From Candidatus Forterrea multitransposorum CG_2015-17_Forterrea_25_41 (lineage in GTDB: Archaea > Iainarchaeota > Iainarchaeia > Iainarchaeales > CSSED10-239), in the NCBI GenBank assembly GCA_009392915.1, contig CP045477.1, positions 448,001 through 512,000 on the forward strand: a DNA stretch of 64,000 nucleotides, read 5' to 3'. The translations under genes were made by a program, and so were the position numbers. Under the pieces are notes generated by a model. The model had not been told where the DNA came from. It searched no databases and saw nothing but the letters and a program-made list of their open reading frames with translations. Each line of letters opens with the position of its first letter. The first letter of the stretch is position 1. Of the stretch, positions 20,806-41,281 are shown one piece after another.

Positions 20806-21510
20806 CTAAACTATATAACTAGATACAAAAAAGATTAAAAGACTTACTGGAAGTAAAAAACATAAATAAATCCAAACTTTCTTTGAATTACTATCAATCT
20901 GTGATAAATAAATTGAAGAAATTATAACATATTCAACTAAATATACAATTGCACAATAATAACTTACAATAAACAAACTAGAATTAGAAGTTAAACCAAC
21001 AACTGAAATATCAACAATTCCAGTTAAACTTTTAACCAAAGAAATTACAACCCCTAAAATCCCAGGAACAATAAAACCACCTGCAAAAAGAATAGTGTAT
21101 TTTTGCATTAAAAGAATTGAAGTTCTTTCATCAAACAATTCTCTTGATTTTAAAAAATCTTTAACTAAATTTTTATAATCTTTAGAAGTAACTGTTCCAG
21201 TAAAAACTGAATATTCTAAAAGATCTAAAAAATTTGAAAGAAAAGAAGAATTATATTTATTTTTTAAAATATTAAACACTTCTTTAGGGGTATGCCCTTT
21301 GTTTATTTTATTTAAAATTAATTTAAATTCAGAAGATATTAATTGATTACTGGAAGATGCAAGCTTTACTAAAATTACTTTTAGATCATTTGTTTTAACA
21401 AACCCAGAGATTCTTAAAACTTCATCAATTAAAGCATCTTCAAATTTCTTTCTCTTAATACTAAAAAAATAATCTCCAAATAAGTAATTTAAATACTTCA
21501 TTAATTTCAT
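20806..21510 (-). CDS. type II secretion system F-domain (TadC/FlaJ-like) membrane protein
   Basis: Cytoplasmic helical region followed by three TM helices. Lies directly downstream of the FlaI-like ATPase and a second TadB/C-like gene. Confidence 0.5.
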   Translation of the reverse strand: MKLMKYLNYLFGDYFFSIKRKKFEDALIDEVLRISGFVKTNDLKVILVKLASSSNQLISSEFKLILNKINKGHTPKEVFNILKNKYNSSFLSNFLDLLEYSVFTGTVTSKDYKNLVKDFLKSRELFDERTSILLMQKYTILFAGGFIVPGILGVVISLVKSLTGIVDISVVGLTSNSSLFIVSYYCAIVYLVEYVIISSIYLSQIDSNSKKVWIYLCFLLPVSLLIFFVSSYIV

Positions 21511-21533
21511 AATTAATTAACTCTCATTTTTAT

Positions 21534-22280
21534 TTATGGAAGATTAGCTTTCATTGTTAGGAATATAAACATATCAATTATTGGAAATAAAATAACAATT
21601 ATAAAAATAACAGATAAAGGTGTAAAAGATAATTCTAAAAAATTACTACCAACTAATAAAAACATTAAAAACAAAGCAGGAACAATTGCAGAAACAACAA
21701 TATAGATTAAAGATAAAAGACTTAATTTAGTGGAATAATTTTTAATTAAATAATTTTGTTTTTCAATAATACTTGAAGATAATGTTCTTAAAGATTCAGA
21801 TTTATTTAAAGAACCAGTAGATAAAACATCTTCAATCTGATAAAAAACTCTCTTTAAATCTGAGTTTTCAACACCCACAGAAATAAAAGATTCAGAAAGA
21901 GAATAACCTAAGACATTTACTTTATATAAAACTTTTTTAATAATTTGCCCAATTAAAGAAGAATCAACTCTATTTTCTAAAGCAATTTTTAAAGAAATAT
22001 TCTTATCTAAATCATTTGCAAGGTTATTTAAGAAAAAAGGAATTTCTTTATTTATTTGTCTTTGATGATTTTGAAGCTTAATCTTGTATTTAAAAAAAAT
22101 AATAAAAAAGAACATAAAGAAAAACATAATAAATAAATTAAATAAATAACTATAAGATAAACTAATAACCACTGAATCAATTAATAAAAAAATAATTAAA
22201 ATTATTAAATAGAGAATAATAAATAACAAAAAGTTCTTTCTTGTAAATATTTCTTTCTTTAAAAAAATATAATCAATCAT
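21534..22280 (-). CDS. type II secretion system F-domain (TadB/FlaJ-like) membrane protein
   Basis: N-terminal TMs, then a T2SSF-like helical segment (IPFFLNNLANDLDKNISLKIALE), then C-terminal TMs. Start overlaps the ATPase stop. Confidence 0.5.
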   Translation of the reverse strand: MIDYIFLKKEIFTRKNFLLFIILYLIILIIFLLIDSVVISLSYSYLFNLFIMFFFMFFFIIFFKYKIKLQNHQRQINKEIPFFLNNLANDLDKNISLKIALENRVDSSLIGQIIKKVLYKVNVLGYSLSESFISVGVENSDLKRVFYQIEDVLSTGSLNKSESLRTLSSSIIEKQNYLIKNYSTKLSLLSLIYIVVSAIVPALFLMFLLVGSNFLELSFTPLSVIFIIVILFPIIDMFIFLTMKANLP

Positions 22281-24036
22281 AATCTTTTCTAATTAATATT
22301 TCATCAATTATTTTTTCTTGTTTCTTATAAACTTTAAGATAATCTTTTTTATTTTTAATATCAAATGCAAATTTTAATTTATCATAGATTTTAATAGAAT
22401 CATTAACTTTAATTAATTTATTTTTATAAATATCAAAATAAAATAAAACATTTAAAGAAATTTTTCCATCTTTATATATAACTTCACAGATTTCAGTAAT
22501 ATTTCTTAAATCAATAGATTTACCTTTTAAATATTTATTATATCTTCTTTGAGTTATAATTAAATCAATTACACCTAAATCAGTTTCTAAAACACCATAT
22601 GACTTAAACCTTAATAGAGCTTCATTAGCACTTTGAGAATGGAAAGTTGTATATGTACCTTTTGCTTGACCACAAAGCATAGATTCAATTAAATATTTTG
22701 ATTCTTCTCTACTTCTAATTTCTCCAATAACAACTCTATCAGGTCTCATTCTTAAAGTGTTTATAACTAAACTTTCAAGATTAATTCCAATCTCAGGATT
22801 TACAAGTGTAAAAACTTTATGTTTATGAGGGATATTTATCTCTCTAACTTCTTCAACAACAACAAATCTTTCATCTAAAGGAACAAAAGAAAGTAAAGTG
22901 TTTAAAGTGGTTGTTTTTCCAGAACCAGTATTTCCAACAACAATTATATTTGAATCTGTTAAAAAACAAAGACTTAAAAAAACTAAAGCTTCTTTTGAAA
23001 CTGTATTAAAAGAGATTAAATCTTTAATTGTAAATGGTTTTTGAGAAAATTTTCTAATAGTAATACAAGCACTTTCAGTTATTGGGTTTATAACTGCATT
23101 AAGTCTTGAATTATCTTTAAGATAAGTATCTAAAATTGGATTTTTTAAAGTAATATATTTATTTGAGTGCCAAGAAAGTTTATTAATTAAATCCCTTATT
23201 ACTTGAGAAGAAGAATAAGAAAGATTACTTTCAAGCCAACCATAATATTTATGATAAACATAAAGTGATTTTCCTTCTCCAATAATTACAATTTCTTCAA
23301 GATAAGGATCTTTTAATATTTCTGTTAATGGTCCATAATTATAAAGATTATTAAAAGAAATATCTATAATATAATTAAATTGATCTTCTTCAAGCTCTAT
23401 GTTATTAACATAACAATAATCAATTAATTCTTTTTCAATATCTTCTTTTATTCTTTCAGTTGAAACTTTTTCAATATATTCTGTTCTAGTTTTATAAGAA
23501 TCTAAAATAAAGTTAATAACTTCAATTTCTTGGATTGAAAGATTTTGATGAAAAATTAAATATCTTTTAGAAGAATCTTTCATTTCAAATACATTTTTAG
23601 AAATATTTCTTAAGATTTCTTTTTTTAAATCTAAAACAACATAACCTAAATATCTATTAAGAATATATTTCTTTTCATCATCAGTAAACTCATCCATTAT
23701 CTTTAATAAAGCAGGATTATTTTTATAACAAAACATAGAAAAAGAACTTAAAGCACATAAATCACATTTATAAGCTTTATTTTTTCTTAAGATAATAGCA
23801 TTATGTGGACAAGCTTTAAGACACTCACCACACCCATCACATTTTTCAGAATCAATTGCTACAACGCCTTTAGAAACATAATAAATAGCATTTTTTTTAC
23901 AAGCTTTAATACAAGGAGCATCTTTACAATTGGTACAATTGAATACACAAGAAGAGTCTTTTTTTGTAAAATTGTAAGGACAATTTAGAAAAACATCTGT
24001 ATCTTTGATAAAATCTTCTGTTTTCTTAAGATACAT
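22273..24036 (-). CDS. FlaI/TadA/VirB11-family secretion ATPase with an N-terminal 2x[4Fe-4S] ferredoxin-like domain
   Basis: Walker A VGNTGSGKTTTLN, Walker B/Asp box DRVVIGEIRSRE and His box TFHSQS. N-terminus carries CTNCKDAPCIKAC plus a canonical CDGCGECLKACP ferredoxin motif. Confidence 0.85.
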   Translation of the reverse strand: MYLKKTEDFIKDTDVFLNCPYNFTKKDSSCVFNCTNCKDAPCIKACKKNAIYYVSKGVVAIDSEKCDGCGECLKACPHNAIILRKNKAYKCDLCALSSFSMFCYKNNPALLKIMDEFTDDEKKYILNRYLGYVVLDLKKEILRNISKNVFEMKDSSKRYLIFHQNLSIQEIEVINFILDSYKTRTEYIEKVSTERIKEDIEKELIDYCYVNNIELEEDQFNYIIDISFNNLYNYGPLTEILKDPYLEEIVIIGEGKSLYVYHKYYGWLESNLSYSSSQVIRDLINKLSWHSNKYITLKNPILDTYLKDNSRLNAVINPITESACITIRKFSQKPFTIKDLISFNTVSKEALVFLSLCFLTDSNIIVVGNTGSGKTTTLNTLLSFVPLDERFVVVEEVREINIPHKHKVFTLVNPEIGINLESLVINTLRMRPDRVVIGEIRSREESKYLIESMLCGQAKGTYTTFHSQSANEALLRFKSYGVLETDLGVIDLIITQRRYNKYLKGKSIDLRNITEICEVIYKDGKISLNVLFYFDIYKNKLIKVNDSIKIYDKLKFAFDIKNKKDYLKVYKKQEKIIDEILIRKDYD

Positions 24037-31290: not shown

Positions 31291-33081
31291 TCATCCATAA
31301 GTAGTTGCTTTAATACTTTTAACTACACCACTTACAAGAACCCAGCCACCCCATTGACCAGTATTTCTGGATGAATTGGTTACAGATAAAGTCCAACCAG
31401 GTTCACTGTCACCAACTTCCCAATATTTACATTTTTTAGAAGAACCAAAAGCTTCTACTTTAATATTATAATTACCAGCAGGAACTTTCCAAGATCCATC
31501 TTTATCAGTTGCAAGTTGTGAACCACCATATTTAAGATATAAACCATCATTTCCATAATCATTAGTTATTGAACAAACATATGAAGCACTTGTTGAAGAA
31601 TAATTAAAAGTGAGACCTGCTTGAGAAGTATCATTTTCAGAAGCTAAACTAACTACTCCTTCTAAAACTAAATTACCTTGTGTACTTAAACCCTGGTAAA
31701 AGAAACCTGCAGAAGACCAAAATTCATTTAATTTAACACCACCACCTGAGAACGCAGGCTGAGCTACAACTGTACCACCTGATTGCGACCAACCAGACAA
31801 ACTAGTAATACTAGTTTGATTTAATAAAACTACAGCAGGAGCTGATAGAACAAGATTAATACTTGAACTTGTTGCTGTTCTTGAAGCACCATCTGTTACA
31901 GTTACTCTAATATATTTTGTACCAGTAGTTGAAAATGAATAAGTTGGATTTGAAACTGAAGTTCCAAAAACAATCCAAGTACTTTGATTTGTACTATATT
32001 CCCAGGAATAATTAGATACTCCAGAAACTGCATTACTTACAGAAGAATTAAAACTTATTGTTTGACCAGTATCATAATTTGTACCAGTTGTTGGAGAAGT
32101 AACACTTACAGCTAAAGGATCACTAATTAAAATATTACTAACAGTATCAGAATAAACTTGATTAATAGGAGAAGGTCTTGAAGCATCTGTAACTAAAACT
32201 CTAAACTCATAAGTCCCACCTGTTGCAAAACCATTTGTTGTAGTATAACTATTAGAACCAAAGTTAGTCCAACCAGTACTGTTTCTATTATACTGCCATT
32301 GATAAGATTTAGTACCAATTGCATTTGAAACACCTACATCAAATATTATTCCTTCACTAAGATTATAAACATCACTTGCATCAGGAGTATAAATAGTTGC
32401 TGTTAATGGAAGAACAACTGTAAAATCTTCACTTGAAGTTGAAATATCTCCAGTTCCAGAATCTGTTACTTTATAATAAATAGTATAGCTTCCTGTTGAA
32501 GATAAAGTTTGAGATAAAGAAGCACAATTAGTACCAACTGCAGTATTAGTATCATTTGAGTTTAATATCCATTCACAAGAAACTGTTGAAACATTATTAT
32601 CATAATTTCCAGTAAATGAAATTGTTTCATTATTATTCCAAGTAGTTCTTGACATTGTAATACTTGAAGATAACAAATCTAAAATATTTATTCCAATTGT
32701 TTGAGAATCACTTGAAGAATCAAAATCATCTAAAGTATCTAATTTAATTGAATAATCATTAAATACTGAAAAAGAATAACTTGTATTACAATCAGTACTA
32801 AAAGATGTAAATGATGGTAAGTCAGCTCTCTTATGACTCCAATTACAAGTTACATTTCCAACATTATTACTATATGAAGAATTAAAATTAATTGTTTTTG
32901 TAACATTATAATTTGATTCTTCTGTTGGATTTAATATTGTTGATGAAAAATCATCAAAAATTTCAACAAATAAATCATCACTAAAAGTTCCTTCATCATC
33001 ATTTGCAATTACTAAAATTTCATAAATTCCAGGAGTTGTAAAAGTATAAGAAATATCACACAAGGTATCTGAAGGATTCAT
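31291..33081 (-). CDS. Ser/Thr-rich PKD/Ig-like repeat adhesin region; probably the C-terminal part of a giant pilin-like protein, in frame with ORF 33220..33744 across a single TAA
   Basis: No signal peptide of its own. Repeated V[ST]C[EN]W...C...Y.F...G.Y modules. The same module spans the annotated ATG, since the 46 codons upstream (…RGSVSCEWYHTIAGGSQVR-M-NPSDTL…) are domain-like and sense-coding up to the TAA at 33220..33222. Confidence 0.55.
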   Translation of the reverse strand: MNPSDTLCDISYTFTTPGIYEILVIANDDEGTFSDDLFVEIFDDFSSTILNPTEESNYNVTKTINFNSSYSNNVGNVTCNWSHKRADLPSFTSFSTDCNTSYSFSVFNDYSIKLDTLDDFDSSSDSQTIGINILDLLSSSITMSRTTWNNNETISFTGNYDNNVSTVSCEWILNSNDTNTAVGTNCASLSQTLSSTGSYTIYYKVTDSGTGDISTSSEDFTVVLPLTATIYTPDASDVYNLSEGIIFDVGVSNAIGTKSYQWQYNRNSTGWTNFGSNSYTTTNGFATGGTYEFRVLVTDASRPSPINQVYSDTVSNILISDPLAVSVTSPTTGTNYDTGQTISFNSSVSNAVSGVSNYSWEYSTNQSTWIVFGTSVSNPTYSFSTTGTKYIRVTVTDGASRTATSSSINLVLSAPAVVLLNQTSITSLSGWSQSGGTVVAQPAFSGGGVKLNEFWSSAGFFYQGLSTQGNLVLEGVVSLASENDTSQAGLTFNYSSTSASYVCSITNDYGNDGLYLKYGGSQLATDKDGSWKVPAGNYNIKVEAFGSSKKCKYWEVGDSEPGWTLSVTNSSRNTGQWGGWVLVSGVVKSIKATTYG

Positions 33082-33219: not shown

Positions 33220-33744
33220 TTAAGAAGATGGAAGTTCTACAGCACATTTTCTTAAATCAATTGTTTTTTTAGGACAAGTAGAGTTTGATAAAGTAAAAAC
33301 CTTTAAATCTAAAGGATCAATTATTTCTCCAGAATCAACATTAATATCAGAATTTACAATTGTAAAATCAGTTGTTGATTTTAATTTTTTAATTTCTCCA
33401 GATAAAATAGGATTATCAAAATTACCATACATTTTTAGAACATTTGAAGAATTTTGAGAAGTTCCTTGAATATTTAAAGAAAGATTATAAAAATCAATAG
33501 GGGTTGGGTTTCTTAATAAAACTTCAATATTTCCAGTAGTTGAATCAAGATTACAAGATTCTACAACTAAATTATACTTAATACAATCCATTCTAGAAAC
33601 TTCTTGTAATTGATCTTGTGAAACATCTAATTTTTCTCTAACAGATGTTTTTGACCAAGATAAAAATCCTGCAACTAAAACAGCTGTTACCAAGATTAAT
33701 AAAACTACAGAAATTATTGCCGAAATTGATTTTTTTCTATTCAT
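33220..33744 (-). CDS. archaeal type IV pilin-like protein with a class III signal peptide (N-terminal part of the interrupted adhesin gene)
   Basis: MNRKKS|ISAIISVVLLILVTAVLVAGFL: basic residues, a small residue at -1, then a hydrophobic helix, typical of a PibD/FlaK substrate. Shares its reading frame with the downstream 596-aa ORF. Confidence 0.55.
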   Translation of the reverse strand: MNRKKSISAIISVVLLILVTAVLVAGFLSWSKTSVREKLDVSQDQLQEVSRMDCIKYNLVVESCNLDSTTGNIEVLLRNPTPIDFYNLSLNIQGTSQNSSNVLKMYGNFDNPILSGEIKKLKSTTDFTIVNSDINVDSGEIIDPLDLKVFTLSNSTCPKKTIDLRKCAVELPSS

Positions 33745-33830: not shown

Positions 33831-34172
33831 TTAAAAAGAAATAATATCATTTATTTTTATAAAAGAAATATCTGTTTCAATTGGAAGTTCAATTATATAT
33901 TTAGCTTTCTTTTTTGGAGAATAAAAAGTAAAAGGTCTTAATCTTTTTTTAATATCAATAACTTTTTTATTTGAATCTAGAAAAAGAACATTTATTGAAT
34001 AGAAAACAAAAAGCATATGAATTGAAGAGCCTACAATAGATTCATATTCTCTTTTAAAAATAAGACCAAAATCAAATTTCTTTCTTGGAAAAAACATAAG
34101 TCCAAGTCCTTGTTTTAAAGGAGAAATTATTTTCTTTTTTTTAATTATTATTTTATTATTAACTTTTATCAA
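33831..34172 (-). CDS. DUF192 (COG1430)-like small protein
   Basis: GLGLMFFPRKKFDFGLIF...SIHMLFV pattern typical of the DUF192 family. Sits inside the pilus-like locus. Confidence 0.45.
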   Translation of the reverse strand: MIKVNNKIIIKKKKIISPLKQGLGLMFFPRKKFDFGLIFKREYESIVGSSIHMLFVFYSINVLFLDSNKKVIDIKKRLRPFTFYSPKKKAKYIIELPIETDISFIKINDIISF

Positions 34173-34178
34173 AAATAA

Positions 34179-35330
34179 TCACACTTTTTTTTTTAAACTT
34201 ACCCTATATAAAATAACAAAATCAATATCAGATTTTCTAATCTCAAAATCAAAAAATACAGCATCTGGTACAAAAATAGCATACTCTGCACAAGAAAGAC
34301 CACATTCACTTTGATCAAAAGGTAAAAAATATAGATTATTACTATATGTTTTATCTAGAATATATTTAGAACTAATAGATTTTAAAGCAATGACTTCAGA
34401 AATATTTACTTGTTCTAGCTGATTACGATTCATATAGGTAATAGTGTCAATTAAAACACTCTCAGCATCTGGTTTTGGAACAGCAATTTGAAAGATTAAA
34501 ATTGTAAATATAAAAAATATGAAAATATATTTGATAAAATTAAAACTACTTTCTTCTTTTATTGCAAACATTATAAAAGAAATAAAGATAGAAAGAACAA
34601 TTGCCATATAAAGAAGGAAATTATCAAAAAATATTCTTGTTATTAAATCTTGATCTGCATACCATAAAAAATTATTACCTAGTATAATATTTATGAATAA
34701 AATTACAACTAAAAAGATTACAAATAAAACAATGGATAAATAATATAAATTTAAAAAATATTTTTTCTTTTGTGTTTCTTCTTTAAAAATAGAAATATCT
34801 TTTGAAATATTTAAAAGAACTCTATCAAGAGGTATAGAACTTTCTTTAAAAGTCTTTAACAATATTAAAGTGTGAGTGATTATTGGACTTTTAATAGTCT
34901 CATTAATACCTGATAAAGCATTTTCAAAATCATCTCCCCAAGAAACTCTATTTGCTATTCTTTTTATTTCTGTATCAATTGAACCATAAACATTTGATGT
35001 TGTGATATTGTTTAATGATATTGATAAATTATTTGTAGATTTATACTCTCTCGATAAATCTTGTAAAAAGAATGTAAAAGAAGTTTCAATTGCTTTCTTT
35101 TTAAAGTGTTTTAAAACATATTCTAAAACAAAACCTAAAAAACTTACGAAAAAACCAAAAAAGAAAACTGCATAGTATAATTCAGTATGAAGAAAATATT
35201 TATTTGATAAATGAACAATTAAAAGACCAGATAAAATACTTGCAAGAATTAATATTTGGTATTCATAATTATAAATTAATAGTTTTAATTTAATATTCAT
35301 TTTATCTAAAAATTTATTTTTTTCTATCAT
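34179..35330 (-). CDS. T2SSF-domain (TadC/FlaJ-like) membrane platform protein
   Basis: N-terminal TMs, a cytoplasmic helical segment ETSFTFFLQDLSREYKSTNNLSISL and C-terminal TMs. Confidence 0.45.
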   Translation of the reverse strand: MIEKNKFLDKMNIKLKLLIYNYEYQILILASILSGLLIVHLSNKYFLHTELYYAVFFFGFFVSFLGFVLEYVLKHFKKKAIETSFTFFLQDLSREYKSTNNLSISLNNITTSNVYGSIDTEIKRIANRVSWGDDFENALSGINETIKSPIITHTLILLKTFKESSIPLDRVLLNISKDISIFKEETQKKKYFLNLYYLSIVLFVIFLVVILFINIILGNNFLWYADQDLITRIFFDNFLLYMAIVLSIFISFIMFAIKEESSFNFIKYIFIFFIFTILIFQIAVPKPDAESVLIDTITYMNRNQLEQVNISEVIALKSISSKYILDKTYSNNLYFLPFDQSECGLSCAEYAIFVPDAVFFDFEIRKSDIDFVILYRVSLKKKV

Positions 35331-35346
35331 TTAAAAATCAATCTCT

Positions 35347-36189
35347 TCATTTATATAAAATCCCAATTAATACAAATTCAATTACTGCAAATATTATTGA
35401 AAAAATCAACAATGATTCTTTTAATAAAAAATAATCTGTAAAAGTTATAAAAAATATTATTAAAATAACAATAAAAAAGAAAAATAAAAATATTGACATT
35501 AAAAATAAAATATTAATTCTACTTTTCTTTTGTTCACTTAACTCTCTTTTAGATTGTTCTAAATTAGTTAAGAAATCAAGAATAACTTGATTTAAGTCTT
35601 CTTTTTGATCAATAACTTCAATTAATTTTCTAAAGAAGTTTTTTTCAACTTCAGAATATGTTTCAGAAATTATTGATTTAAAAGTATCTTTAAGATTATG
35701 ATTTCTTTTATTTAAAGCAATTATTTTCTTTGCTTCTCTGCTTAATATATCATTATTTTCTAAGTTTTCAAAAACATTCAATACATCTTTAATAGTTAGA
35801 TTTTCATCTCTTAAAACAGATAAATGTTTTATAGATCTTTGAAATTCACTACCAATTTCTTTTTTTATATTATTTAAAATAAAAAAAGGATATTTAAATA
35901 AAAGTAAAAAAATCATAAAAGCAAAAGTAAAAGAAATAAAAATAGTTATAAAAAAACTAAAAAGATTAAACAATATTCCAAGTCTAATCATTAAATAAAT
36001 AAAAGCAAACTCTATAACTATTAAAAAAAATATAGAAATAAAAGAAATATTTGAAATATAACTAATAGAATCTTCATTGATACCAGTATATTCTAAAACT
36101 CTATCAAAATTTTTAAAAGTACCTTTAAATTGCATAACAATATCTTTTAAGAAAAATAAAGATATACTTGTTAAGAATTTACTAAACAT
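35347..36189 (-). CDS. T2SSF-domain (TadB/FlaJ-like) membrane platform protein
   Basis: TM pair, a roughly 120-aa cytoplasmic helical domain and C-terminal TMs. Immediately downstream of the FlaI-like pseudo-ATPase. Confidence 0.45.
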   Translation of the reverse strand: MFSKFLTSISLFFLKDIVMQFKGTFKNFDRVLEYTGINEDSISYISNISFISIFFLIVIEFAFIYLMIRLGILFNLFSFFITIFISFTFAFMIFLLLFKYPFFILNNIKKEIGSEFQRSIKHLSVLRDENLTIKDVLNVFENLENNDILSREAKKIIALNKRNHNLKDTFKSIISETYSEVEKNFFRKLIEVIDQKEDLNQVILDFLTNLEQSKRELSEQKKSRINILFLMSIFLFFFFIVILIIFFITFTDYFLLKESLLIFSIIFAVIEFVLIGILYK

Positions 36190-36196
36190 ATTTTTT

Positions 36197-39100
36197 TCAC
36201 TTTATATCGAGTCTTTTAAACAACTCGTCCTTTTCATAATTATATTGAGAGATAATACTATTAAAATCTTTGTAATTGTATACTTTTGAATCCTTCATCC
36301 ATCTCATAAGTTTCTTTTTCTTTAAAAAATCAACAACATTTATTGAAGAAGATAAAAGATTAATATTGTATTTATTTTCGGATATTTCTAAATCTACAAC
36401 TACACTTTCATTTTTATTAATTATTTCTTTAATATTTACAATTTGATAAGTTTCTTTAAAACCTTGTTTAATTCTTTTAATTTCTATTAGAATAGATTTT
36501 TGATTAACCATTTTTAATTGTTCAATAAATTTATCAGCAACATTTGGTTTTATTGAAAAGATATTTAAGTTATACCAAGAAACATCAAAAATATCTTCTC
36601 CAAACTCATCAATTGCAATAATATCTGGTTTCTGAGAAATTGTTTGTTCAATAATTAAACGTTTACTTAAATCTGCATTATTTGTAAAAATTCTATTAAT
36701 CCATTCTTTTTGAGGAAGTTTAAATCTATCGTATGCCTGAACAGTTATAATTTTCTGATCAGGATAAAATAAAAGTATAGAATTATAAATTACAAAAGAA
36801 TCATCAACATCATGTAAAATAACTTTATAGTTTTCTGAAATTGCAGACCAGATATATGAAAATACATCTACAGAACCAATAGATGTATTAACTAAAGCAA
36901 CAGGTGTTAATGGTTCATCAAGATATTTTTTAATTACAAAAGAAGAACCTTTACTACTAGTATCTCCTAAAGAATAAAGACCTTCAACTTTATAACCATT
37001 AGGTAAATATCCATCAATCACAGGATGTTCTGGAGTTATATAGATACCCATATTTTTAGTTAAAATAGTTACAAAGTTATTTAACTCAATAATATCTTTA
37101 AAACTAATATTTGTTTTTAAAACACCATACTCTACATGGTAAACTATAAGATTTGATTTTTCACCAGAACAACTAACTTCAATTATTTTTTTATCAAGTA
37201 AAAGATTAGTTAAAATACCTAACCCAAAAAATTCTCTTTGAATAAATTTAAGATAAAGTTTTTGTTGTAATTTACCTAAACTATAAGATAATTTTTCAAC
37301 AGAAATATCAAATATTTTTTGAATATATTTATCAAGACTATGTTTATCTCCATTAAAAGAATAATAGTTTTTATCGATTGTATTAAAAAATACTTTTTTT
37401 AATTGAATATATTCTTTTTCTTGTTCACTATTAAGTTCTGGTTGTACTAAATTATAGAAAAGACCTTTAGTATTATCATAATGTATTGTAACATATGTAA
37501 AATCATCTATAGAATATTTATCAAAAATATTTTTTATATTTTCTTCAAATGAAGCAATAGGATCTTGATACACTAAAGAAGAAAATAGAGAATTGTCAGA
37601 AGATAATTTTTCTTGATATATTTCTTTATTTATTTTAACAGGATTTTTTCCAGCATCTTTTGGAAGGATATAATCCATACCTTTTTCTCTTAAGTCTTTA
37701 AATTTTTCTGCAATTAAATCATTTTTAACTTTCGGAGTTAATTTTACTTCTTTGATAATTTTAATTTCTTGTTCTTTTGGTAATGATTCTTTTTTAATTG
37801 TTTTAGATATTTTTTCATCATCATTATCTTCATCAGAATAATTCTCTTTTGAAGTAACTTTTTCTTCTCTTATAGAAGGAGAAATATATTTTTTATTTTT
37901 GTTTGAAATTTTAGATTTATCTTTTTTATTTTTAGGAGAAGAAATTTCTCTCATACCTTTATATATTCTTTCATCATCTTCTTTAGATAAATCAACATCA
38001 GAAAATACTTTTTTAACATCTTCTTCATCTTTATCTATTTTCTCATTTAAAACATTAACATCAAATTTTTCTTTTTCTTTTTCTTCTAAAGTTTTTGATT
38101 TTTTTAATTTAGAAATATTATTTTCAATTTCAGAATTTAATTTTACTTGATTATTATCAATTACAAAATTTGGTGTTTTTTCAGAAGATTCATTTGTTTT
38201 AATTTCAGAAGATAAAGAAGAATCTTCATTTAAAACTTTTAAATCATTTTTTGAATCTTTATCATATACAGAAAACTTATCTTCAACAGTGTTAGATAAA
38301 TCTTTAACATCATCTTCAATTGCAAAAATATCTGGAACTTCAATTTCTTCAAATAAACCATTAGCCTCACCTAAAGAAGAATTATTTAAATGAGAACTAG
38401 AATTTTTAGAATCTATTTCTAAATTACCTGTGTTTTTAGGAAAATCATTTGAATTTGCTAAAGTTTCTTTATTTTGAGAATCTTTATTTTTATTTACAGA
38501 TAAATGATCTATTTTTGAATATAAATTTTTAACATCATACTTTGGAAAATCAATTTTACTTTTTTTAGGTTTATCATCTAAAAAAGAAAATGATTCTAAA
38601 TAAACTTCTTGATCAAGTTTACTTGCTTTTTTATTTAATTGATCTAATAAATCATCTACATTTTCATTTTTTGATTTTACTTCTGAAAAAATATCATTTG
38701 ATTCTTTACTTTCAGAATATTCTTTTGGTTTAGATACATTTTCTAAAATATCTTTCAAAAGAGACATGGTTTTTTTATTATTATTTGATTCATCAAAATT
38801 TATTTCTTTTTTAATTGAATTATCAATATGATCTATTTTAGGCTCACTTATTAAAAATGAATTTGAAGGTTTTATTTTTTTTTCAGAAGATGAATCCGAA
38901 AGTAGTAGTTCATGAGATGAATCAGGGAGTAATAATTCATTATTAATTTTTGATGAAATTAATTTATTAGATGTTGATTTTTTATCAACTTTATCTAAAG
39001 GAACTTCTTTTTTAAAAATATTAGAATTATCAACCTTATCTAAAGGAACTTCTTTTTTAGAAATATTAGAATTATCAACTTTATCTAAAGGAACTTCTTT

Positions 39101-39547
39101 TTTAGAAATATTAGAATTATCAACTTTATCTAAAGGAACTTCTTTTTTAGAAATATTAGAATTATCAACTTTATCTAAAGGAACTTCTTTTTTAGAAATA
39201 TCTAAATTATCAACTTTATCTAAAAGAATCTTTTTTTTTCTAAAAGGATTAAAATCTTTATATTTTTCTTCAATATCAGAAGTGTCAACTTTTAAGTTTA
39301 CTTTCTTAACATCATTATAATTTTTATTTAAAGAAAAATCATCTTTTTTAGTTTCTGGTAAAACTACATCAAATTTTTGTAATTTTTTAGAATTACTATT
39401 ATTTTTTAAAGAACTATCAATTTTATCTTCTTTTAAAGAACTATCAAATTTATTATTTTTTACAGAATCTGAAGCTTTAGATATAGATTTAGATAGAGGA
39501 ATTCTTTTAATAACCTTAAAACCAGAAAAATTATCCTCTCCACCCAT
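36197..39547 (-). CDS. FlaI/TadA-like ATPase-fold protein that lacks the Walker A P-loop (predicted inactive), fused to a roughly 650-aa K/D/E/S-rich disordered repeat N-terminal region
   Basis: The C-terminal 460 aa align with the active ATPase at 22273..24036. IEVSCSGEKSNLIVYHVEYGVLKTNISF matches IVIIGEGKSLYVYHKYYGWLESNLSY. SSFVIKKY matches ACITIRKF. At the P-loop position the sequence is ILHDVDDSFVIYNSILLFYP rather than VVGNTGSGKTTTLNTLLSFVP. The N-terminus carries KKEVPLDKVDNSNIS tandem repeats. Confidence 0.6.
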   Translation of the reverse strand: MGGEDNFSGFKVIKRIPLSKSISKASDSVKNNKFDSSLKEDKIDSSLKNNSNSKKLQKFDVVLPETKKDDFSLNKNYNDVKKVNLKVDTSDIEEKYKDFNPFRKKKILLDKVDNLDISKKEVPLDKVDNSNISKKEVPLDKVDNSNISKKEVPLDKVDNSNISKKEVPLDKVDNSNIFKKEVPLDKVDKKSTSNKLISSKINNELLLPDSSHELLLSDSSSEKKIKPSNSFLISEPKIDHIDNSIKKEINFDESNNNKKTMSLLKDILENVSKPKEYSESKESNDIFSEVKSKNENVDDLLDQLNKKASKLDQEVYLESFSFLDDKPKKSKIDFPKYDVKNLYSKIDHLSVNKNKDSQNKETLANSNDFPKNTGNLEIDSKNSSSHLNNSSLGEANGLFEEIEVPDIFAIEDDVKDLSNTVEDKFSVYDKDSKNDLKVLNEDSSLSSEIKTNESSEKTPNFVIDNNQVKLNSEIENNISKLKKSKTLEEKEKEKFDVNVLNEKIDKDEEDVKKVFSDVDLSKEDDERIYKGMREISSPKNKKDKSKISNKNKKYISPSIREEKVTSKENYSDEDNDDEKISKTIKKESLPKEQEIKIIKEVKLTPKVKNDLIAEKFKDLREKGMDYILPKDAGKNPVKINKEIYQEKLSSDNSLFSSLVYQDPIASFEENIKNIFDKYSIDDFTYVTIHYDNTKGLFYNLVQPELNSEQEKEYIQLKKVFFNTIDKNYYSFNGDKHSLDKYIQKIFDISVEKLSYSLGKLQQKLYLKFIQREFFGLGILTNLLLDKKIIEVSCSGEKSNLIVYHVEYGVLKTNISFKDIIELNNFVTILTKNMGIYITPEHPVIDGYLPNGYKVEGLYSLGDTSSKGSSFVIKKYLDEPLTPVALVNTSIGSVDVFSYIWSAISENYKVILHDVDDSFVIYNSILLFYPDQKIITVQAYDRFKLPQKEWINRIFTNNADLSKRLIIEQTISQKPDIIAIDEFGEDIFDVSWYNLNIFSIKPNVADKFIEQLKMVNQKSILIEIKRIKQGFKETYQIVNIKEIINKNESVVVDLEISENKYNINLLSSSINVVDFLKKKKLMRWMKDSKVYNYKDFNSIISQYNYEKDELFKRLDIK
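38991..39215. repeat. five copies of a 45-bp tandem repeat (ttatctaaaggaacttcttttttagaaatattagaattatcaact) with degenerate flanking copies; coding, 15-aa unit KKEVPLDKVDNSNIS
   Basis: Read directly from the sequence. Copies differ by one to three substitutions. Confidence 0.85.
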
Positions 39548-39630: not shown

Positions 39631-40362
39631 TCAAATAACAAAAGAAATAATTTTTGGAATAATTTCAAAAACATATAAAAGAATTAGAAAGATATAACTT
39701 ACTAGGATTAATATAATAAATGGAATTAAAGGAGAAAACCACACCTTAGAAATATTATGATTTTTAGCAATAACTTTAATTTTTTTAATTTCATTTTCTG
39801 GTTCAATATTTGGCATAAAAACAATTTTTGAAATTAATTTATTATTTTCTACATACAATTTTTCTAAAGGAGTATAAAAATTATTTACTTTTTTTAAAGA
39901 TAAAGGAACCCCTAAAAACATTAGATATAATGATTTAAAAAAATTATATTTAGGAAAATTTCTTGAAAATAAATTATATAAAAATAAGAAAACAGGTATA
40001 AGTAAAGTTAAAACTAAAGCAAAAAAGAAAATAAACATTGGAAAATATATATCAAAAATATTTGTAAATGATATTGCAAAAATAGTATAAAGATCCCCTT
40101 CTCCTATATATGTAAAATAACTAATCTTTCCTAAAACATAAAAAATTAATAAAAATATAAAACTTACAGCAAGTTGTATTAAATAACCTTTCCATAAAAT
40201 AAAATCTGTTTTAAAAACAAAAATACCTAAATAAAGAATACTAAAGATGGCTAAGAAAAATAAAGACATTATATTTATTTCTCTATACTTAATATCTTGA
40301 TAAGTTACATACAATAAAATAATTATAGAAAAAATAATTATTGGTAAATAAATATAATCCAT
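39631..40362 (-). CDS. A24-family prepilin/preflagellin peptidase (PibD/FlaK-like)
   Basis: Polytopic protein with the first catalytic Asp in YQDIKYREI and the second in IGEGDLYT (a GxGD-type motif). Confidence 0.7.
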   Translation of the reverse strand: MDYIYLPIIIFSIIILLYVTYQDIKYREINIMSLFFLAIFSILYLGIFVFKTDFILWKGYLIQLAVSFIFLLIFYVLGKISYFTYIGEGDLYTIFAISFTNIFDIYFPMFIFFFALVLTLLIPVFLFLYNLFSRNFPKYNFFKSLYLMFLGVPLSLKKVNNFYTPLEKLYVENNKLISKIVFMPNIEPENEIKKIKVIAKNHNISKVWFSPLIPFIILILVSYIFLILLYVFEIIPKIISFVI

Positions 40363-40369
40363 AAGTTAT

Positions 40370-41281
40370 CTATATTGATCTTTTTGTAAGATACATTAAA
40401 TCTTTATAAGCTTTAACTTTTGTTTTTCTTGCAGTTGATCTTTCAAAAAGATTATCAGTATAATTTCCAGGAGGTCCTACTGATTTAATTTTTTTATTTT
40501 TAATTTTATTTAAAAGAATCTTATTCTTTAAATTATCATCATCTTTATCAAAAAAAGAAGTATTTAGATCAATTGTTAAAATACCACTACCAATCTCAGA
40601 AACATTATAACTTCCAGAACCAGCTGTAATATAGTTTGACATTTTACCAAGCTTAATTGCTGCTTCAAATTTATAAACAACATCATAACTTTTTTGATCA
40701 ATTTTATGAGTTAAATATTCACTAAAACTTGAAAGTCCTAAAGTCTTAAAAAACCTATGAAGCTCTAAATAATCTAAAATATGTCTTAATTTTCTTAAGA
40801 AAAAAGAATCATGCATATAATAAGATAAATACCCAATTGTTCCAGTATATGCTTCAACACCAATTTTTTTTTCTTTAATAATTTTTTCTAATTTATCAAG
40901 TCCTAAAATATAAGTTGCAGAATTTGATATAAGTCCAAAAGGATGTGCAATTGTTATTAAATATCTTTTTTTATAACAAAAATCAATTAATCTTTTAAGA
41001 GAAACTTTATCTTCATAAAGTATAGAATAATTATAAATACTAGCATCTTCAGAAAAAACTAAAACTTCTCCAGAATCAGTTAATATTTTAATACCTGGAA
41101 TTAATAATTTATCTTTTGGTTTAAATTTTAAAAGTTCAAAATATGCTTTTCTAGGATCTAAATAATTATATTCAGTTATAGCTGTACCTAAAAGATTATT
41201 TTCAGAAACTACTTTCCAATATTTTTTTGCAGACTCTTTATTTTTAAAAAGATGAGTATGCATGTCAATATTATATAACAT
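40370..41281 (-). CDS. metal-dependent phosphoesterase/hydrolase (PHP-like), uncertain
   Basis: NIDMHTHL near the N-terminus and an AHP motif later. Weak. Confidence 0.35.
   Translation of the reverse strand: MLYNIDMHTHLFKNKESAKKYWKVVSENNLLGTAITEYNYLDPRKAYFELLKFKPKDKLLIPGIKILTDSGEVLVFSEDASIYNYSILYEDKVSLKRLIDFCYKKRYLITIAHPFGLISNSATYILGLDKLEKIIKEKKIGVEAYTGTIGYLSYYMHDSFFLRKLRHILDYLELHRFFKTLGLSSFSEYLTHKIDQKSYDVVYKFEAAIKLGKMSNYITAGSGSYNVSEIGSGILTIDLNTSFFDKDDDNLKNKILLNKIKNKKIKSVGPPGNYTDNLFERSTARKTKVKAYKDLMYLTKRSI

Follow-up and report, generated by a model that had tools for sequence, protein, structure and literature searches.

Iainarchaeota have a complete pilus locus whose motor slot is occupied by a homolog of secretion ATPases that almost certainly is a conserved, functional pseudo-enzyme. 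In the window, by which we mean the whole 64,000-nucleotide stretch of Candidatus Forterrea multitransposorum DNA that was analyzed, this pseudo-ATPase is encoded at 36197..39547 by an open reading frame of 1116 aa with an ATG start; it and all other features described here lie on the minus strand. It has the attributes of a pseudo-enzyme, namely homology to an enzyme, loss of the catalytic residues, and purifying selection across orthologs, and its family is a so far undescribed variant within the known secretion ATPase family. To our knowledge, a catalytic hexameric ATPase is described in this operon slot for every characterized type-IV-filament machine (pili, archaella, T2SS, and Tad). In our incomplete coverage of the literature, we found no report of Walker-A-less or catalytically inactive PilB/GspE or TFF ATPase paralogs and nothing relevant on Iainarchaeum pili; the text of Makarova et al. 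(2016) contains no statement of inactivated TFF ATPases, and comparative surveys of archaeal TFF systems (PMC4858521; preprint 10.64898/2026.04.22.720090) mention neither a dead ATPase nor a ferredoxin-ATPase pairing.

The folded core comprises aa 671–1116 (36200..37537; ~446 aa) and was identified as afGspE/FlaI-like, with an NTD and a RecA-like CTD, by phmmer, AF2, and Foldseek. In phmmer comparisons with PDB sequences, the core matched afGspE (2OAP) with an E value of 9.5e-31 and FlaI with one of about 1e-21. The AF2 model of the core (pLDDT 90.9, pTM 0.86) and Foldseek revealed the architecture of an N-terminal PAS-like and a C-terminal RecA-like domain, with a TM score of 0.82 to 2OAP over ~480 columns and of 0.6–0.73 to FlaI. 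The NCBIfam FlaI/ArlI equivalog model NF058587 matches the protein (E=1.9e-30) at 106 bits, far under its cut-off of 550, and in Pfam the whole protein hit no family at E<=0.1 and stayed below the gathering score of T2SSE (PF00437). The initial annotation had aligned the C-terminal part with the bona fide ATPase encoded at 22273..24036, and BLASTP supports this homology (23% identity over 212 aa, E=2e-13), the homologous part being ~446 aa long. The nearest active relatives in both phmmer and the tree are afGspE/FlaI-type ATPases, not this same-genome paralog, and judging from sequence the ancestor of the pseudo-ATPase was an archaeal ATPase for TFF assembly that belonged to the afGspE/FlaI clade. 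An origin as a recent duplicate of the active ATPase in the same genome was ruled out; in the tree, the pseudo-ATPases cluster with ATPases that have no ferredoxin domain, at a great distance from the paralog.

To compare catalytic positions, we used the 92 alignment columns in which conservation across 28 active ATPases reaches 85% or more. Of these, 46 are lost in the pseudo-ATPase family, including GKT, the Asp box, the Walker B Gly and Arg, the His box, and all seven conserved Arg residues; the 26 that are retained are mainly structural, and the lost catalytic columns now hold residues that are conserved inside the family. Opposite the P-loop G-x4-GKT, alignments place LHDVDDSFV (aa 911–919; 36791..36817), in which the GK pair is deleted and a conserved Asp stands instead; the following Thr is also replaced, and acidic residues occupy the region. 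All core family members read (H/V/T)(D/G)xDD(S) at this site with the GK pair deleted, and in the distant ortholog P0032 the motif is replaced without deletion. The Asp box, S-I-E-D-T-x-E in active proteins, is degenerate (TVQAYDR, 36725..36745; IED to VQA), the family consensus being Q-(A/S/P)-(Y/F/H)-D with the Glu kept in 5%. Walker B, D-x-I-I-V-G-E-V-R-G in active proteins, reads DIIAIDEFG (36599..36625; GE(I/V)R to DEFG); its Gly has become acidic in 22/22 members (Asp in 21, Glu in 1), and its Arg is kept in 0%. In the His-box region (WYNLNIFSIKP, 36545..36577), G-H and T-x-H-A are deleted or replaced and a family-specific W-Y is conserved, the segment being 5–7 residues shorter across the family and lacking any conserved His. 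The initial annotation of a catalytically dead FlaI/TadA-like ATPase, with HDVDDSFV at the Walker A position and a diverged His box, is thus borne out, the His box being deleted. The RKF motif that it reported before the P-loop is not retained; the counterpart of the conserved linker motif GS(S/T)FTIRKF is SSFVIKKY (36923..36946), with Arg changed to Lys and Phe to Tyr. No GxxxxGK[ST] was found elsewhere in the domain after proper alignment, and the loss of Walker A, the Asp box, Walker B, and the His box is common to all ~25 orthologs.

From these sequence comparisons, nucleotide binding and hydrolysis are predicted to be lost in the pseudo-ATPase. It is highly improbable that the protein retains NTPase activity, or even just senses nucleotides, at a non-canonical site: the RecA-like fold is intact and the Walker B Glu is present in the window protein, but no more than 41% of the family have this Glu, and the changes at the P-loop together with the loss of the Asp box, the His box, and the seven Arg residues argue against such a site.

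About 25 orthologs were identified in 16 Iainarchaeota species genomes and in metagenomes, and all of them carry the same dead motifs. An exhaustive search of 1.84e9 representatives returned 16 clusters at 583–756 bits followed by a drop to <=259 bits, and the orthologs form a discrete family. P0032, which is 26% identical, has the same gene order and is likewise dead. Bootstrapping of an NJ tree recovered the pseudo-ATPases, with P0032 among them, as a monophyletic clade in 100/100 replicates, its long stem arising among active ATPases; this monophyly may be inflated by long-branch attraction and shared loss columns. One could suspect a pseudogene in decay, or two genes joined in error by assembly or gene calling, from a low-quality metagenome contig (L024), where the gene is split by a frameshift with a ~13-codon deletion, and from consecutive N letters within the repeat region of another ortholog (L003), which make its length of 972 aa unreliable. 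All other orthologs are intact, however, and the gene is whole in 16/16 species-representative genomes with its frame continuous through extension and core. The dN/dS of the ATPase-like domain is 0.044 at a dS of 0.17 and 0.07–0.14 at a dS of about 1; this range of 0.04–0.14, together with P-loop loss conserved in every ortholog, favors a functional over a decaying gene, an alternative that the initial annotation had raised. Given also the confident AF2 fold and the conservation of N-terminal motif and islands in the extension, we consider both readings ruled out, their probability being negligible.

The core is preceded by a cytoplasmic K/S/D/N/E-rich extension (aa 1–670; 37538..39547), delimited by composition and AF2, in which no TM segment was found. 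We predict it to be mostly disordered because 39% of its residues are charged, K+S+D+N+E make up 62%, it falls on the disordered side of the charge-hydropathy boundary, and AF2 assigns a pLDDT <50 to 539 residues (aa 1–295, 338–457, and 536–652). At least five conserved islands interrupt it. The N-terminal motif GFKVIKRIPLSK (39488..39523) is conserved, and the start codon is backed by an N-terminal motif common to orthologs, (F)KVIKRIPLSK. Island M1 (aa 296–350; 38498..38662; NVDDLLDQLNKK...FSFLDDKPK...NLYSKID) is modeled by AF2 as a weakly structured helix and hairpin, and M2 (aa 398–430; 38258..38356; LFEEIEVPDIFAIEDD...) is family-specific and also present in P0032; M3 (aa 455–480; 38108..38185; PNFVI...LNSEIE) and M4 (aa 621–630; 37658..37687; DYILPK) follow. 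M1 and M2 occur in all full-length members of the family but are absent from the ~260 active ATPases and other ORFs compared, and Pfam searches with the extension alone and with M1 gave no domain or family. The A5 island profile had no matches in a 5.8-billion-protein collection; it missed known members too, probably owing to low-complexity word seeding or bias filters.

Between close pairs of orthologs the extension has a dN/dS of 0.29–0.42, and across the family its length is about 340–760 aa. A tandem repeat with a 45-bp unit (38982..39239; 5.7 copies, 96% matches) encodes KKEVPLDKVDNSNIS units; it is strain-specific, being missing from an 84%-identical ortholog (P0014), and the tandem repeats in the extension differ by lineage and are gained or lost between strains. 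Low hydropathy, high charge, the lack of a predicted fold, indel and repeat turnover, and the islands together mark the extension as a disordered region with short linear motifs. The 650-aa disordered repeat extension of the initial annotation therefore holds as regards disorder, as predicted from composition and AF2, its size being about 670 aa and its sequence, with the islands, not featureless; the array of five or six exact 15-aa repeats is real, only three copies being exact, two near-exact, and one degenerate. A role as a length ruler, suggested in the same place, is rejected because the extension varies more than two-fold in size between species and its repeats turn over between strains. 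A scaffold or regulatory tether would be compatible with the data.

Gene order is fixed at all loci as prepilin peptidase, pseudo-ATPase, T2SSF, T2SSF, DUF192, and (pilin-like), with gaps of 6–86 nt between the locus genes in the window. The class III signal (prepilin/preflagellin) peptidase (39631..40362; Pfam Arc_PepC_II and Peptidase_A24) lies 83 nt upstream of the pseudo-ATPase and is syntenic in 14/16 loci, that is, in all that reach that far, L005 and L009 ending at a contig edge. Platform protein 1, with a single T2SSF domain (35347..36189), starts 7 nt downstream of the pseudo-ATPase and is followed by platform protein 2, also with a T2SSF domain (34179..35330), and by the DUF192 protein (33831..34172), which always comes after the platform pair and in one locus (L002) is fused to platform protein 2. 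The pilin-like protein (33220..33744) has a class III signal-like N-terminus (MNRKKS/ISAIISVVLLILVTAVLVAG) and a weak UpsA match (E=0.05); its gene stops at an in-frame TAA where close relatives read CAA, and a PKD-domain surface protein is encoded beyond it (31291..33081). In two orthologous loci (L003 and L021) a single frame runs from the pilin-like N-terminus into the PKD part, the product being complete at 811 aa in L021 and the frame extending to the contig end in L003. The placement of the pseudo-ATPase beside a T2SSF platform and a prepilin peptidase is that of a TFF locus, and no archaellum genes (archaellins, ArlH, ArlX/CDE, and ArlJ) were found there. Neither this motor-slot position nor the linked ferredoxin-fused active paralog nor the family-specific extension motifs had been part of the initial annotation.

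The paralog at 22273..24036 combines a 4Fe-4S dicluster ferredoxin domain with an intact secretion ATPase (GNTGSGKTT) and is a candidate motor, predicted to be co-transcribed with a second T2SSF platform pair (20806..22280, comprising 21534..22280 and 20806..21510). The two modules lie 12–18 kb apart on one contig in the window, in JAQVTI010000004.1, and in NPID01000316.1. They are adjacent in 1/16 species only (L011), where the ferredoxin-ATPase and two T2SSF genes begin 66 nt after DUF192 on the same strand, making a single eight-gene cluster; otherwise, housekeeping genes lie between them. The sole pilin-like gene found within the window belongs to the pseudo-ATPase module and the sole intact ATPase to the other; next to the active cassette, the window showed neither a pilin gene nor a peptidase gene. 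Because the ferredoxin-ATPase cassette is far commoner than the pseudo-ATPase and also occurs without it nearby, the cassette is not reliant on it. The ferredoxin-fused ATPase probably supplies power for the pilus machine, and a third, conventional ATPase may be encoded elsewhere in the genome, outside the window.

By a modest margin of belief, we favor a role of the pseudo-ATPase in a type-IV-filament machine made of two modules, where it would be a non-catalytic subunit that docks on the platform or acts as a scaffold. Its core would still bind its own split platform, formed by the two neighboring T2SSF proteins, from the cytoplasmic side and have a static structural or regulatory function there, and the conserved islands of the arm would recruit partners. 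ATP-driven work, if any, would come from the linked ferredoxin-fused ATPase and the second platform pair, and the two modules would constitute a single machine for export or assembly of the class-III-signal pilin/PKD adhesin, which the adjacent peptidase would process. Oligomeric state, docking, recruitment, and coupling to the ferredoxin-ATPase are all features that we infer; nucleotide-dependent hexamerization is the norm for the secretion ATPase family, and the pseudo-ATPase has neither the Arg residues nor the P-loop. That the two ATPase homologs work as one system is a tentative, nearly balanced proposition that we rate slightly on the doubtful side, and a platform pair for each homolog could equally mean two independent machines. 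A stand-alone passive machine is fairly unlikely. Here the locus would work with no ATPase at all, as a site where class-III-signal surface proteins are anchored or processed, bindosome-like or a static adhesin anchor, with a dead hexamer capping or stabilizing the platform and the ferredoxin-ATPase cassette belonging to an unrelated second system. The separate platform gene pairs, the housekeeping genes between the modules in most species, and the wide occurrence of the cassette without a pseudo-ATPase locus alongside are consistent with it, but all characterized TFF systems known to us require ATP hydrolysis (by PilB/GspE/FlaI) to extract pilins from the membrane, and the co-directional cluster in L011 and the active cassette that stands in the window without pilin or peptidase gene also speak against it.

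Quite unlikely is a brake or placeholder, by which the dead paralog would compete with the active ATPase for the platform, locking the filament or blocking assembly until displaced, as in the exchange of PilB and PilT at the base of bacterial T4aP machines. The fold and the platform-adjacent position are kept, surface positions that replaced catalytic ones are under strong purifying selection, and we know of no PilT-type retraction ATPases in archaea, all of which would fit such a device; however, because the two proteins are only ~23% identical and the pseudo-ATPase has its own dedicated platform pair, the gene content does not suggest competition for the same docking site. The two-module scaffold that we favor can be extended to a two-ring or otherwise composite machine, an unlikely variant in which a nucleotide-free dead hexamer on one split platform would extend six disordered arms of 340–760 residues, and conserved motifs on them would capture and position the active ATPase, a redox sensor by its 4Fe-4S domain, together with the second platform. 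If this were true, adhesin or pilus deployment would be gated by the redox or energy state of cells that are tiny and probably host-dependent, in a type of machine not described in any organism. A role in contact with the host is ascribed to the surface appendages of DPANN archaea. In the DPANN lineage Iainarchaeota a dead motor-slot ATPase has been maintained long-term under strong selection, which implies a structural or regulatory job of the ATPase fold at the platform that is separable from catalysis, and the pseudo-ATPase would be a natural separation-of-function variant for motor-ring roles beyond hydrolyzing ATP. It also draws attention to a putative, hitherto unexplored partnership with the ferredoxin-fused ATPase, which is found widely across DPANN archaea.

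Among known systems, afGspE (PDB 2OAP) and FlaI/ArlI (PDB 4IHQ and 4II7) share with the pseudo-ATPase the two-domain fold, sequence homology, and an operon position beside a platform protein and a class III peptidase. Unlike them, it lacks Walker A, the Asp box, a functional Walker B, the His box, the conserved Arg residues, and a Pfam T2SSE match, and it has a 340–760-aa disordered N-extension and family-specific motifs; unlike the archaellum, its locus has no archaellin, ArlH, or ArlX genes. Tad/Flp systems (TadA/CpaF, TadB/TadC) likewise have compact loci and a platform split into two single-T2SSF-domain genes, but the pseudo-ATPase core is much nearer to afGspE/FlaI (E=1e-31) than to CpaF (4e-5; TM 0.5), the locus has no TadZ, and its ATPase homolog is dead. 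The V/A-ATPase B subunit and F1 alpha are non-catalytic duplicates in RecA-type hexamers that persist beside a catalytic paralog under purifying selection. By analogy, the pseudo-ATPase may be seen as another ancient RecA-fold duplicate retained by purifying selection after catalysis was lost; those subunits form obligate alternating hetero-hexamers, whereas the pseudo-ATPase and its paralog are only ~23% identical and have separate platform pairs. ArlH/FlaH is a KaiC-like partner of ArlI, and PilU depends on PilT (PMC6762196). Like these two, the pseudo-ATPase may be an additional protein with an ATPase fold that acts on, or relies on, the main motor at the machine base, but ArlH is from a different family and remains able to bind ATP, PilU is catalytically competent, and neither has a long disordered arm. 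In PilB/GspE-type ATPases the N-terminal region likewise serves docking and regulation of the motor: the GspE N1E domain binds GspL, MshEN is a c-di-GMP domain, and Thermus PilF carries GSPII domains. The Thermus PilF chain is 913 aa long (PDB 6F8L), and variable N-terminal domains are a recognized theme in archaeal TFF ATPases (preprint 10.64898/2026.04.22.720090). The PilB/GspE-type extensions are folded domains on active enzymes, whereas that of the pseudo-ATPase is predicted to be mostly disordered, contains no known domain, and joins its conserved islands to a dead core.

The minus-strand ORF 36197..39547 is genuine; it encodes 1116 aa, of which the C-terminal ~446 aa show homology to secretion ATPases. 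As the initial annotation had proposed, this C-terminal part aligns with the ATPase encoded at 22273..24036 (BLASTP, 23% identity over 212 aa, E=2e-13), and phmmer searches against the PDB matched afGspE (2OAP, E=9.5e-31), FlaI (~1e-21), and CpaF (~4e-5). The Pfam T2SSE model did not match the protein, and the NCBIfam FlaI model matched it with E=1.9e-30, yet with 106 bits against a cut-off of 550 bits. By descent and predicted fold the protein belongs to the PilB/GspE/FlaI superfamily, within the archaeal afGspE/FlaI clade; because it lacks all catalytic membership features and falls below the Pfam and NCBIfam thresholds, it should not be classed as an ATPase, and we refer to it as the pseudo-ATPase. 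An archaeal SRP RNA identifies the window (~23% G+C) as archaeal, and relatives of the pseudo-ATPase place it in the Iainarchaeota (Diapherotrites, DPANN): 'Candidatus ainarchaeum sp. STF1_257' encodes a C-terminal domain that is 98% identical, and further orthologs are found in Ca. Iainarchaeum/Diapherotrites MAGs.

The core (aa 671-1116) is predicted to be folded but catalytically dead. AlphaFold2 modeled it with a pLDDT of 90.9 and a pTM of 0.86 from a 50-sequence alignment, and Foldseek matched the model to afGspE (TM 0.82) and FlaI (0.6-0.73) across the entire two-domain structure. We compared 22 members of the pseudo-ATPase family with 28 active archaeal ATPases over the 92 columns that are at least 85% conserved among the active proteins; 26 of these columns are retained, mostly as Gly, Pro, Trp, Tyr, Cys, and His scaffold positions, and 46 are lost. 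In Walker A the Gly-Lys pair is deleted and the next Thr replaced, the Asp-box E-D-T-x-E is lost, Walker B has lost its Gly and Arg and has the Glu in only 41% of members, and both G-H and T-x-H-A are gone from the His box, in agreement with the initial prediction of a dead ATPase-like domain. The RKF motif, which had been reported as retained, is not: all seven universally conserved arginines are lost, with DGSR reading NGYK and IRKF reading IKKY. The family agrees in what it carries instead: an Asp where the P-loop was, Gln in place of the Asp-box Glu, Asp in place of the Walker B Gly, and, around the His box, a W-Y pair. This pattern indicates that a new constraint, not relaxation, acts on these positions.

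A word-indexed search returned seven close homologs, none of which has a Pfam domain. When 1.84 billion cluster representatives were searched exhaustively with an HMM, 16 clusters scored 583-756 bits and the scores then fell to 259 bits or less; among GTDB species representatives, a scan recovered 16 loci, each of them in an Iainarchaeota-type MAG. The reading frame is unbroken across extension and core in all 16 loci, and every ortholog has the same dead motifs, so that the loss of the P-loop is conserved rather than sporadic. Complete orthologs range from 788 to more than 1209 aa, with L005 truncated at its contig start and the length of L003 unreliable. Nei-Gojobori estimates of dN/dS for the core are 0.044 in the closest pair (dS 0.17) and 0.07-0.14 at dS ~1, consistent with purifying selection, and 0.29-0.42 for the alignable parts of the extension in close pairs. 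A distant ortholog, P0032 (26% identity), is likewise dead; its P-loop has no deletion, but the Lys is replaced by Cys, Walker B GE reads DY, and the His residues are replaced by Gln and Asn. Neighbor joining groups the dead proteins, P0032 among them, into one clade in 100 of 100 bootstraps, support that is possibly inflated by long-branch and shared-loss effects; the clade lies on a long stem within the active afGspE/FlaI-like ATPases, far from the paralog in the same genome. Judged by these sequences, the pseudo-ATPase is conserved and not decaying.

The N-terminal extension (aa 1-670) consists of 62% K, S, D, N, and E, is 39% charged, and falls on the disordered side of the charge-hydropathy boundary; composition analysis found no hydrophobic segment in it, and no Pfam domain was found. 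In a full-length AlphaFold2 model, aa 1-295, 338-457, and 536-652 have pLDDT values of ~30-45 and nearly no secondary structure (two short helices) and aa 296-337 and 458-535 are weakly structured, although with an alignment of only 22 sequences structure could go undetected. The disorder suspected from the sequence is thus borne out as a prediction. Conserved islands lie at aa 9-20, 296-350 (M1, VDDLL...FSFLDDKPK...NLYSKID), 398-430 (M2, EEIEVPDI..I.DD), 455-480 (M3), 621-630 (M4, DYILPK), and 651-670. HMMs of M1 and M2 match all full-length family members, the matches to P0032 being partly circular as it is within the seed alignment, and have no matches among ~260 active ATPases and ~700 other ORFs compared.

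A 45-bp tandem repeat (38982..39239, minus strand; 5.7 copies, 96% matches) encodes the 15-aa array described initially, not as five or six exact copies but as three exact KKEVPLDKVDNSNIS units, two near-exact units, and one degenerate unit. This array is missing from the 84%-identical P0014, and the tandem repeats of the extension are lineage specific: P0024/L008 carries PQELPxVI (at least five copies by script, ~7 by eye), P0013 carries DNLDVKK four times, and other lineages carry other repeats, which shows that sequence between the islands turns over rapidly. Because extension length also varies about two-fold or more across the family, a role of the arm as a length ruler, one of those initially suggested, is excluded. 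In L003 (JAQVRT010000022.1), a run of Ns within the N-terminal third of the ortholog lies exactly at the position of the array; the repeat probably causes short-read assemblies to break there, and copy number in public MAGs is therefore unreliable. Many of the active afGspE/FlaI-like archaeal ATPases nearest to the family (P0008, P0009, P0011, P0033, P0034, P0043, P0049, and P0058) also have N-terminal extensions, of 100-400 aa, low complexity or coiled coil and without M1-M4, so long arms are common in the clade and not specific to dead copies.

The pseudo-ATPase lies in a tight, co-directional cluster (gaps of 83, 7, 16, 6, and 86 nt) in the order class III signal peptidase, pseudo-ATPase, two single-domain T2SSF platform proteins, DUF192, pilin-like protein, and PKD-domain surface protein. 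This order is kept in all 16 species as far as contigs reach (peptidase seen in 14), and the P0032 contig has UPP synthase, peptidase, pseudo-ATPase, T2SSF, and T2SSF; the gene for the dead protein thus stands in the position of the motor gene in a type-IV-filament (TFF) locus that is complete in other respects. On the P0032 contig, a HicA/HicB toxin-antitoxin pair (L023 12460..12877) directly follows the platform genes, where DUF192 and the pilin would be. The DUF192 (COG1430) gene (33831..34172, minus strand) always follows the platform pair, and its fusion with the second T2SSF protein in L002 (13268..14752) implies that DUF192 acts directly with the platform. The pilin-like ORF (33220..33744), the only gene with a class-III-signal-like N-terminus found by a scan of the window, ends at an in-frame TAA (33220..33222, minus strand) that separates it from the PKD ORF (31291..33081); the sequence beyond this codon remains in frame and conserved. 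L003 and L021, both close relatives, read CAA (Gln) here; L021 encodes a single 811-aa pilin-PKD protein, and in L003 the frame is open from the pilin-like into the PKD part to the contig end. L004 likewise keeps the two parts apart, by a frame change in addition to a stop at this site. The TAA could be a real truncation, a polymorphism, a site of read-through, or a sequencing error. Next to the peptidase on its upstream side, 40370..41281 (minus strand) encodes a 303-aa protein with a DMHTH-type N-terminus that has no Pfam match and no PDB sequence match; it adjoins the peptidase in 14 of the 16 loci, is more conserved than the peptidase (57-97% identity), and may belong to the pilus system.

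In the active paralog at 22273..24036 (minus strand) the motifs are intact and a 4Fe-4S dicluster ferredoxin domain (Fer4 families, aa ~33-95) is present at the N-terminus, an architecture that suggests a redox-sensing pilus or secretion motor. Two T2SSF genes always follow it, and more than 100 protein clusters from DPANN MAGs (Diapherotrites, Micrarchaeota, and others, as named by their sources) share the fusion. The cassette is also found elsewhere with no pseudo-ATPase adjoining it. The two modules are 12-18 kb apart on the same strand, with housekeeping genes between them, in the window, JAQVTI010000004.1, and NPID01000316.1; in CAYXWT010000012.1 (L011) the cassette begins 66 nt past DUF192, forming a single eight-gene cluster. 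This cluster is the best evidence, genomic in kind, for the tentative reading, somewhat short of even, that the two modules work together.

The analysis shows the homology and fold of the protein, its loss of motifs, the selection acting on it, and its synteny and linkage; the mechanism beyond these is inferred. The dead core would dock on the two neighboring platform proteins and serve there in a static, structural or regulatory role, the arm would recruit partners through its islands, and the ferredoxin-ATPase would provide the work. Hexamer contacts in secretion ATPases are normally nucleotide and arginine dependent, and the loss of both calls for caution even on the oligomeric state of the pseudo-ATPase. 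An anchoring station that works independently of the ATPase would fit the distance between the modules in three genomes and fits the L011 cluster less well; we consider it rather unlikely. A brake or placeholder competing with the active motor would fit the retained fold and the position next to the platform, and the identity of only ~23% with the same-genome paralog speaks against such competition; we regard it as improbable. A non-canonical nucleotide binder is very improbable given the deleted Gly-Lys pair and lost arginines. A pseudogene or artefact is scarcely credible: the sole broken copy, on a 4.7-kb JGI metagenome contig, has a frameshift and a ~13-codon deletion, against intact frames in all 16 species. 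The preferred reading remains that of a docked, non-catalytic subunit.

The V/A-ATPase B and F1 alpha subunits are non-catalytic paralogs, and ArlH is an accessory of the TFF motor. Known N-terminal extensions are folded domains on active enzymes, in contrast to the mostly disordered extension on a dead core described here. The pseudo-ATPase bears a conceptual likeness to these RecA-type ring paralogs and to the accessory TFF-motor partners ArlH and PilU (PMC6762196), and N-terminal extensions for docking or regulation are a recognized theme (preprint 10.64898/2026.04.22.720090). Neither dead nor ferredoxin-fused TFF ATPases are mentioned in two archaeal TFF surveys (PMC4858521 and the same preprint), and a literature text search of incomplete coverage found no precedent for a dead TFF ATPase. 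Among active archaeal TFF ATPases, P0039, P0054, and P0059 carry large intein/homing-endonuclease-like insertions located within the P-loop or shortly ahead of the His box.
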